From the IMG/VR virus record IMGVR_UViG_3300025401_000012: a stretch of DNA of 64,000 nt; one strand, 5' to 3'. The notes under the pieces are model-generated. The model did not search any database. It saw only the letters and a list, made by a program, of their open reading frames with translations, and had not been told where the DNA came from. Source of the stretch: a virus. Lineage: Duplodnaviria > Caudoviricetes. The translations under genes were made by a program, and so were the position numbers. Positions 454 to 1,502 of the stretch are shown one piece after another. The stretch's first letter is position 1, and every line of letters begins with the position of its first letter.

Positions 454-1281
454 ATGTCAAACAACCCGTTACAAAAGTATTTTAGACAACCAAAAGTTTT
501 TATCAAGCTACCTTCGGGCGGTATCTACAGCAAGCCTGGAACTATACAAGGCGATGTTACACACATGCCTATATTTGGCATGACTGGCATGGATGAAATC
601 ATTAGTAAAACTCCAGATGCACTGTTAACCGGTGAAAGCACGGCATCTTTGATAGCCAGTTGTTGTCCTAACATCAAGGATCCATGGGAATTAAGTATTA
701 TTGATTTAACTATCATTTTGGCAGCTATTCGTATTGCTACCTACGGTAATACCATGGCTGTAACACATACTTGTACCAATTGCAACACTGAAAATGATTA
801 TGATTTAGAATTAAATCGTGTGATAGAACACTATATGAACTGCCAATATGACAGTAGAATTGTGCTAAATGACTTGACAATACAGCTAGTGCCTATGACT
901 TACCGTCAAAGTACCGAGTTTAATCTAAAGAATTTTCGTTTACAGCAACAAGTTGCTCAGGCCGAAGTCATGGATGATGAAAAACAACGTCAAGTTTTAG
1001 TGGCAGCTTTGTTTAAAGACTTGGCTTTAGTACAAAATGAAATTTATAAAATCACTATTGAAAGTGTCAGCACCGGTAGTCAAGTAGTAACTGAGCGTGC
1101 TTGGATCTTAGAATGGTTAGAAAATGCTGACCGTTCAGTATTCGATGCTATTAAAGCCAAGAACGCACAAAACAATGATGCATGGACCATGCCCAAGTTT
1201 CCAGTCAAATGCGATACTTGCGGAACTGATGCTAACTTAACTATTGAACTAGACCAAGCAAATTTTTTCGTAAAAGCCTAA
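454..1281 (+). CDS. gp26: T4 gp26-like baseplate hub assembly / tail assembly chaperone
   Basis: N-terminal NPL..YFRQPK..IKLPS.G motif, two CxxC pairs (CTNC, CDTC) and a C-terminal ..NFF, as in gp26-like proteins. Confidence 0.75.
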   Translation: MSNNPLQKYFRQPKVFIKLPSGGIYSKPGTIQGDVTHMPIFGMTGMDEIISKTPDALLTGESTASLIASCCPNIKDPWELSIIDLTIILAAIRIATYGNTMAVTHTCTNCNTENDYDLELNRVIEHYMNCQYDSRIVLNDLTIQLVPMTYRQSTEFNLKNFRLQQQVAQAEVMDDEKQRQVLVAALFKDLALVQNEIYKITIESVSTGSQVVTERAWILEWLENADRSVFDAIKAKNAQNNDAWTMPKFPVKCDTCGTDANLTIELDQANFFVKA

Positions 1282-1372
1282 TTAGTCTCACACCTCAAGA
1301 AATCGAAACAAGATTAGTTAGGCTCGACAACGAAGTTAAAAATTTCAAGCAAGAATTATTTAAAATTTCTTG
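1260..1372 (+). promoter_or_regulatory. Candidate programmed -1 ribosomal frameshift signal
   Basis: In-frame slippery heptamers A AAT TTT (1260-1266) and T TTT TTC (1263-1269). A 14-bp stem 1275-1288/1311-1324 (12 Watson-Crick + 2 G.U) starts 5-8 nt downstream. The loop sequence CAAGAAAT (1296-1303) is complementary to ATTTCTTG (1365-1372). Confidence 0.7.
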
Positions 1373-1502
1373 GTACATGAGAGGTGGTGTTACTGTAGAT
1401 GAGCTACTAACTCTTTATTCTTATGAAGATCGTGAAATGATCTATAATGTTATTAATGATAACATTGAAATGACCAAAGAAACTAAGATGCCATTGCTAT
1501 AA
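1260..1502 (+). CDS. gp51-like ORF in the -1 frame of gp26; probably made as a ~349-aa gp26-gp51 frameshift fusion
   Basis: The -1 frame is open from 1248 to TAA at 1500-1502 and reads FFRKSLISLTPQEIETRLVRLDNEVKNFKQELFKISWYMRGGVTVDELLTLYSYEDREMIYNVINDNIEMTKETKMPLL. The first ATG (1377) has no SD. Not in the ORF track. Confidence 0.7.
   Translation, partial: KFFRKSLISLTPQEIETRLVRLDNEVKNFKQELFKISWYMRGGVTVDELLTLYSYEDREMIYNVINDNIEMTKETKMPLL

Follow-up and report, generated by a model that had tools for sequence, protein, structure and literature searches.

The stretch of DNA analyzed here (the window) comprises 64,000 nucleotides (nt) of a tailed virus of the class Caudoviricetes, IMG/VR record IMGVR_UViG_3300025401_000012, and the locus in question is a gp26-like gene for baseplate-hub assembly that is overlapped at its 3′ end by an open reading frame (ORF) in the −1 frame, an arrangement from which a short and a long protein are very probably produced by programmed −1 ribosomal frameshifting. 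The source is an uncultured freshwater giant phage. As shown in Table 1, the locus carries upstream expression signals, the gene itself, two slippery heptamers, a stem and the −1 extension. The zero-frame product of 275 amino acids (aa) matches the family PF12322 (T4_baseplate) with an E-value of 1.8e-13 and 51.1 bits, against a curated cut-off of 24.5, and the baseplate-hub family phrog_150 with an E-value of 5e-16. It is 26–30% identical to its counterparts in the giant phages Atu_ph07, Phosso, PA5oct, XacN1, XaC1 and the RaK2-like Escherichia and Yersinia phages; a megablast search of positions 400–1950 against phage records gave no match, so that no close DNA match was found among isolated phages.

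Table 1. Features of the gp26-like locus and its −1 extension (positions in the window).
Feature	Position	Strand	Remarks
T4-type late promoter motif TATAAATA	425–432	+	22 nt 5′ of the start codon
Shine–Dalgarno sequence GGAG	443–446	+	7 nt 5′ of ATG 454; read from the sequence
gp26-like baseplate-hub assembly gene	454–1281	+	zero-frame product of 275 aa; PF12322, phrog_150
First slippery heptamer A_AAT_TTT	1260–1266	+	X_XXY_YYZ register; read from the sequence
Second slippery heptamer T_TTT_TTC	1263–1269	+	X_XXY_YYZ register; conserved predicted slip site
−1 frame extension	1269–1502	+	77 codons plus stop; gp51 C-terminal-like helical domain
5′ arm of stem	1275–1288	+	5-nt spacer after the second heptamer
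Zero-frame stop TAA	1279–1281	+	within the 5′ arm of the stem
3′ arm of stem	1311–1324	+	pairs with 1275–1288
Hairpin of 8 base pairs	1502–1521	+	directly after the −1 frame stop; RNA fold

The gene ends in GCA AAT TTT TTC GTA AAA GCC TAA, and a preceding sequence-only reading had claimed two overlapping in-frame heptamers within this end; both are present in the correct register. The first, A_AAT_TTT, is restricted to lineages in which AAT is the preceding codon and is not a universal site. An uninterrupted −1 frame runs from 1248 to its stop at 1500–1502, giving 84 codons, 77 of which lie past the slip, and it contains no ATG, GTG or TTG before the ATG at 1377, in keeping with the claim of an open −1 frame without a start of its own led by a Shine–Dalgarno sequence. 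Because no such codon precedes 1377, gene callers annotate just a 41-aa ORF in this frame. Joining the two frames at the second heptamer gives a predicted fusion of 349 aa (272 + 77), with the junction ...QANFF-RKSLISL.... Positions 1100–1542 are matched with zero differences and zero gaps by contigs of four further freshwater metagenome runs; therefore, the T6C run and the frame arrangement are not an assembly error. Among public runs, no RNA data set is listed for this stretch.

Comparison with relatives covered seven annotated giant phages as well as 21 contigs of uncultured viruses, out of 24 found, with 33–84% identity; the giant-phage relatives number 29, of which 21 are non-redundant, and extend down to 26% identity. 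In each of the 29, the 3′ end of the gene carries an in-frame T_TTT_TTC (as T_TTT_TTT in XacN1), and the same heptamer followed by a −1 ORF is also found in KVP40, Aeh1, S-PM2 and P-SSM2. The heptamer is thus kept in 33/33 relatives that have a single PF12322 gene with a −1-frame extension, including giant phages, KVP40, Aeh1 and cyanophages, and the slippery-site conservation that had been proposed as a check is found throughout these lineages. Given the encoded amino acids and the codon use of each gene, the probability of the heptamer is 0.02–0.2 per lineage; the summed log10 probability is −25 over 24 non-redundant sequences, which are not fully independent and represent about nine deeply separated clades. 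The zero-frame tail past the slip site is 1–11 codons long, variable and not conserved.

The number of PF12322 genes in a genome bears on this pattern. Each of the complete genomes of five giant phages contains one such gene, as do KVP40, S-PM2, P-SSM2, Aeh1 and RM378. In T4, gp26 and gp51 both match PF12322 (E-values of 8.8e-64 and 3.9e-52) and are paralogues. No in-frame T_TTT_TTY occurs in gene 26 or gene 51 of the two-gene phages T4, VR7, Acinetobacter MD-2021a, 44RR2.8t and RB16, and T4 codes the homologous Phe-Phe as TTC TTT. Since the heptamer is present in the single-gene phages and missing from the two-gene phages, its retention coincides exactly with the need for one gene to supply both forms. 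A separate observation concerns Rhodothermus phage RM378 (NC_004735, ~25.9–26.7 kb), whose single PF12322 gene ends in a T7 run and is followed by a conserved ORF in the +1 frame instead of the −1 frame; recoding of another type, transcriptional slippage or a miscounted homopolymer in an old sequence could each account for this arrangement.

The stem downstream of the slip site (Table 1) consists of 14 base pairs (bp), including two G.U pairs, and has a folding energy of −16.6 kcal/mol and a z-score of −4.5; none of 200 shuffled sequences folds equally well. For comparison across lineages, the 75 nt 3′ of the heptamer were folded, and in nearly all lineages the stem starts 5–6 nt 3′ of the heptamer. 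In the window's clade (five sequences), 93% of the cells of the 14-bp stem are paired, and both-sided changes occur at three pairs. In another clade of twelve sequences, a long-range stem GGCUYUUG ... CAARAGCC is 87.5% paired, and one of its pairs is split 6:5 between U-A and C-G. Slid controls gave 17–51% paired for the window's clade and 17–62% over both clades. The stem had been predicted from the window's sequence, and the comparison supports it, with its position kept in homologues and compensatory changes in two clades. It had further been suggested that the loop pairs with a downstream segment to form an H-type pseudoknot. The complementarity exists in the sequence (9 bp between 1294–1302 and 1365–1373); it is reached by 14/500 shuffles, marginally above chance, and no counterpart at matching places was found in any of four clade relatives, so the pseudoknot is unsupported as a feature. 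In the same metagenomes, contigs of other, diverged phages align to the window over 1259–1291 only, a 33-nt segment that holds the heptamers and the 5′ arm of the stem, and differ from it on either side, which suggests an unusual nucleotide-level conservation of the frameshift cassette.

The −1 frame is always open across the site in the giant-phage relatives, starting 2–13 codons before it and running 70–79 codons beyond. The alignment of the −1 peptide, FFRxxLLxxxP[ED]E[IV]..., is gap-free from the slip on, and its mean column identity is 61%, compared with 53% for the hub domain. In the segment 1282–1376, substitutions concentrate at the third position of the −1 frame (three relatives; 6/2/15 by codon position against contig L008), as they do in 1377–1499. 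This bias, together with a peptide conserved from the slip site, agrees with the expectation that the region up to 1376 is coding sequence in the −1 frame. No ATG, GTG or TTG occurs within 30 codons past the slip in the window's clade, PA5oct or contig L026, and where ATGs do occur past the slip in some lineages, they align with ATA, TTA or CTA in relatives.

The relation of the extended product to T4 gp51 was examined with profile comparisons. The match of gp51 to phrog_150 reaches about 45 profile positions further than that of gp26. When an alignment of 21 predicted fusions is compared with one of 92 gp51 homologues, the match is colinear: it starts in the N-terminal part, crosses the junction and reaches the C-terminus (E-value of 2.4e-5 over 218 columns), and the extension alone aligns with the gp51 C-terminus by hhalign with an E-value of 2.2e-4 over 32 columns. 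For KVP40, Aeh1 and the cyanophages, the extensions reach 8.5e-10 against the gp51 C-terminus and just 0.004 against the giant-phage extension. In searches of Pfam and PHROG, the −1 extension had no direct match to the gp51 families PF28602 and phrog_634, and only phrog_23772 appeared, at an E-value of 0.034; with a plain hidden Markov model of the fusions, the scores of T4 gp26 and gp51 were too weak to be of use, and a profile of eight extensions was not significant against the single T4 gp51 sequence. The conserved slip site, the stem, the coding −1 frame and the colinearity of fusion and gp51 together support the earlier prediction that a 275-aa gp26 and a fusion of about 349 aa would both be made.

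It is proposed, with a probability of roughly 85%, that programmed −1 ribosomal frameshifting yields a short and a long protein from the gp26-like gene. The majority of ribosomes would stay in frame 0 up to the TAA at 1279–1281 and release the 275-aa gp26-type protein. A fraction would come to a pause at the stem of 14 bp located 5 nt past the slip site; tRNA-Phe in the P and A sites on UUU UUC (1264–1269) would then re-pair one base back on UUU UUU, and the slipped ribosomes would resume at CGU 1269 and read 77 codons to the stop at 1500–1502. The resulting 349-aa fusion would be the counterpart of T4 gp51, and the ratio of short to long protein would be set by the slip. That ribosomes actually slip here, and with what efficiency, we infer from the sequence features described above. 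By analogy with T4, whose genetics points this way for gp26 and gp51, and in the manner of lambda G/GT and P2 E/E+E′, both forms may act jointly as non-virion chaperones of the hub/tape-measure complex.

Several observations weigh against this proposal. The predicted stem is weak or missing in one clade member, contig L029, and in the RaK2-like group. The stem arms code for conserved residues, and the protein may account for part of the stem conservation; changes on both sides of stem pairs argue for selection at the RNA level as well, besides that on the protein. The giant-phage extension resembles the gp51 C-terminus only modestly (E-value of 2e-4). The remaining objections concern the start of the small ORF: an ATG 1–3 codons past the slip in Atu_ph07, Phosso, KVP40 and the cyanophages could start it separately, databases annotate it as separately started in lineages with such a near ATG, and the stop codon of the window's clade is overlapped by an ATT (TAATT).

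These last points belong to an alternative in which two separate genes are present, the small ORF being started by termination–reinitiation at AUU 1281 (73 aa) or at ATG 1377 (41 aa), while the T-run merely codes for Phe-Phe. The stop–start overlaps ATGA in Atu_ph07 and Phosso fit such coupling, as do the ATG 2–3 codons past the slip in KVP40 and the cyanophages, where a separate small gp51 is annotated, and the retention of ATT 1281 within the window's clade. However, the position of the ATG corresponds to a conserved hydrophobic residue, coded by ATA, TTA or CTA in close relatives, and not to a conserved start; a canonical start is lacking in the window, PA5oct, Aeh1 and others, even though the peptide is conserved from the slip site. 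Separate translation would also leave the codon choice T TTT TTC in 33/33 lineages, against 0/5 two-gene phages, unaccounted for; no Shine–Dalgarno sequence precedes 1281, and T4 gp51 holds both parts in a single chain. Separate genes are therefore regarded as unlikely, although separate initiation may occur in lineages with a near ATG.

Polymerase slippage has also to be weighed, in which RNA polymerase inserts an extra U at the T6 run and so joins both ORFs in a share of the mRNAs. The site is indeed a homopolymer run, and the T7 run with a +1-frame ORF in RM378 is not explained by a simple −1 ribosomal slip. A T6 run is, however, short for efficient polymerase slippage (a subject reviewed in PMC5009743), for which the strict X_XXY_YYZ register would be irrelevant, and a conserved, covarying stem at 5–6 nt is typical of ribosomal frameshifting; transcriptional slippage thus seems very unlikely. 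A homopolymer sequencing error in what is really a single gp51-like ORF, or the disruption of a gene by a frameshift mutation, is excluded, error-prone as homopolymer runs are, because the same layout occurs in 33 independent genomes that include isolates from different groups, four independent assemblies are identical to the window, and the zero-frame stop always lies 1–11 codons past the site.

The 275-aa product and the extension were modelled as two separate AlphaFold2 predictions. The model of the 275-aa product has a mean predicted local distance difference test score (pLDDT) of 84 and a predicted template modelling score (pTM) of 0.78; that of the extension has a pLDDT of 82 and consists of three main helices with a short N-terminal turn. 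A sequence search of the PDB with the hub protein returned nothing, and Foldseek returned nothing at E-values up to 0.001 for both models against the PDB or for the extension against BFVD. A wide structural search gave only generic helical-hairpin matches over residues 146–212, with Z of at most 8.5. The predicted fold thus gives neither a clue to function nor a link to known tail chaperones.

Upstream of the gene, the motif TATAAATA occurs once in the 64-kb window, directly before the gp26-like gene, compared with a chance expectation of ~16. By analogy with T4 biology, it would serve as a late promoter; it is strongly avoided elsewhere in the window, and therefore variants of it probably serve the other late genes. 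The surroundings of the hub gene are of T4 type, with gp23, a prohead protease, a portal protein, gp46/gp47 and a gp5-like spike. A 962-aa gene on the opposite strand, two genes away from the hub gene, may encode a tape measure. In three contigs (L055–L057; locus 5943–8831, minus strand), this gene codes for 962 aa in two and for 930 aa in the third, which has an identical hub protein; therefore, strains differ in the length of the possible tape-measure gene.

Downstream of the −1 ORF, the hairpin at 1502–1521 possibly marks, on weak grounds, the end of a transcription unit; a terminator scan did not call it and called no plus-strand terminator in 1281–1502. The adjoining ~50 nt after the −1 ORF stop, positions 1503–1552, occur at 10–30 times the flank depth in four freshwater metagenome runs, and many short unrelated contigs end inside this stretch, which is present once in the window. 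It may be the conserved junction of a mobile cassette composed of an endonuclease and an RNA, or a shared terminator. Further along, positions 1795–1927 on the minus strand hold a full-length match to the Rfam Polynucleobacter-1 RNA (RF01718), with 99 bits against a gathering score of 37 and an E-value of 3e-21, directly 3′ of a gene for a SegE-like GIY-YIG endonuclease (1929–2366, minus strand). RF01718 is a known RNA motif of unknown function, found here within a phage.

In existing records, the −1 ORF of KVP40, Aeh1, S-PM2 and P-SSM2 is annotated as a small separate gp51 or omitted, and the KVP40 record remarks that the ORF resembles the final 40 residues of gp51. In these four records, as in the seven giant-phage records, no feature carries the flag of a joined coding sequence. 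The extension ORF is unannotated in PA5oct (NC_071039, locus 2331–2558) and in Aeh1 (NC_005260), where it lies between Aeh1p198 and Aeh1p199; in Atu_ph07, the annotation covers only the last 41 codons of the extension. A literature search on gp26, gp51, the baseplate hub and frameshifting found no report of the slip, and the accessible portion of a 2016 review of recoding (PMC5009743) mentions neither the baseplate nor T4-like phages. With the proposed frameshift, the conserved slip of tail-chaperone genes would take in a protein family and a group of phages for which no report of it was found. It would provide a simple annotation rule for the hub gene in cyanophages, vibriophages and giant phages, and it would make the role of gp26/gp51 testable, since the ratio of the two forms would be set by one heptamer that can be recoded with no change of the protein.

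According to the review of Leiman et al. 2010 (PMC3004832), T4 gp26 and gp51 both count as chaperones of hub assembly, and gp51 is required for assembly while not being part of the particle. Both belong to the same family as the hub protein described here (PF12322, phrog_150); the 275-aa product matches gp26 in extent, and gp51 is colinear with the 349-aa fusion, with a modest match that takes in the gp51 C-terminal helical domain (PF28602 in newer Pfam). T4 genes 26 and 51 are divergently transcribed, so that T4 has two divergent paralogous genes with no slippery site, whereas the window has one gene and a predicted frameshift. The extension here is also ~15–20 residues longer than its T4 gp51 counterpart (77 vs. 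about 60). The slip would account for the two paralogous hub assembly genes of T4, as opposed to the one gene with a tiny start-less ORF in most relatives. One GenBank record labels a gp51 homologue "tape measure protein assembly chaperone". On a broader view, for which the odds are about even, the gp26/gp51 frameshift is ancestral to the whole T4 superfamily, taken here as the giant RaK2-, PA5oct- and Atu_ph07-like phages, the schizo-T-evens and the cyanophages; T4 and its close relatives have swapped in a duplicated gene pair, and the two products act as the G/GT-type tape-measure chaperones that have long been missing from T4-like myoviruses. If this is true, a frameshifted tail chaperone pair is the rule for essentially all long-tailed phages, and thousands of records with a small separate "gp51", or with nothing, are mis-annotated.

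A conserved −1 frameshift in tail assembly chaperone genes was reportedly described by Xu, Hendrix and Duda in 2004. The −1 slip logic of the lambda G/GT genes is reviewed in PMC5009743. The predicted system resembles lambda gpG/gpGT in that a short and an extended protein with a common N-terminus would arise from one tail-assembly gene by a −1 slip close to its 3′ end, and in that the products are assembly factors, not virion parts (for T4 gp26/gp51: PMC3004832). In contrast, lambda G and T belong to sequence families different from PF12322, the structural searches above gave no fold match, and the hub protein had no match to the G, T or tail-assembly-chaperone families of Pfam at E-values up to 1. 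The lambda G/GT gene lies between the tube and tape-measure genes, whereas the hub gene here is not so placed: it is divergent from the 342-aa and 962-aa genes and is followed downstream by a homing endonuclease and gp46/gp47. In KVP40 and Aeh1, the hub gene follows a tail-tube paralogue; the large genes after the hub gene in KVP40, Aeh1 and P-SSM2 were not recognizable as tape measures, and that of S-PM2 matches a tape-measure PHROG through its lysozyme region only. By analogy, gp26 and gp51 may be the equivalents of lambda G and T, which bind the tape measure and the tube; the N-terminal part would then bind the tape measure and the extension the tube protein.

Phage P2 offers a further comparison. 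According to PMC3091744, which cites Christie et al. 2002, P2 makes E and E+E′ through a −1 shift at TTTTTTG. The P2 E proteins are unrelated to the hub protein and much smaller (91 and 142 aa), and P2 has no downstream stem according to PMC3091744, whereas a covarying stem lies 5–6 nt past the slip site here. P2 is also a myovirus, with a near-identical slippery run (T6G, compared with T6C here) and the same logic of two products, which is predicted for the gp26-like gene of the window.

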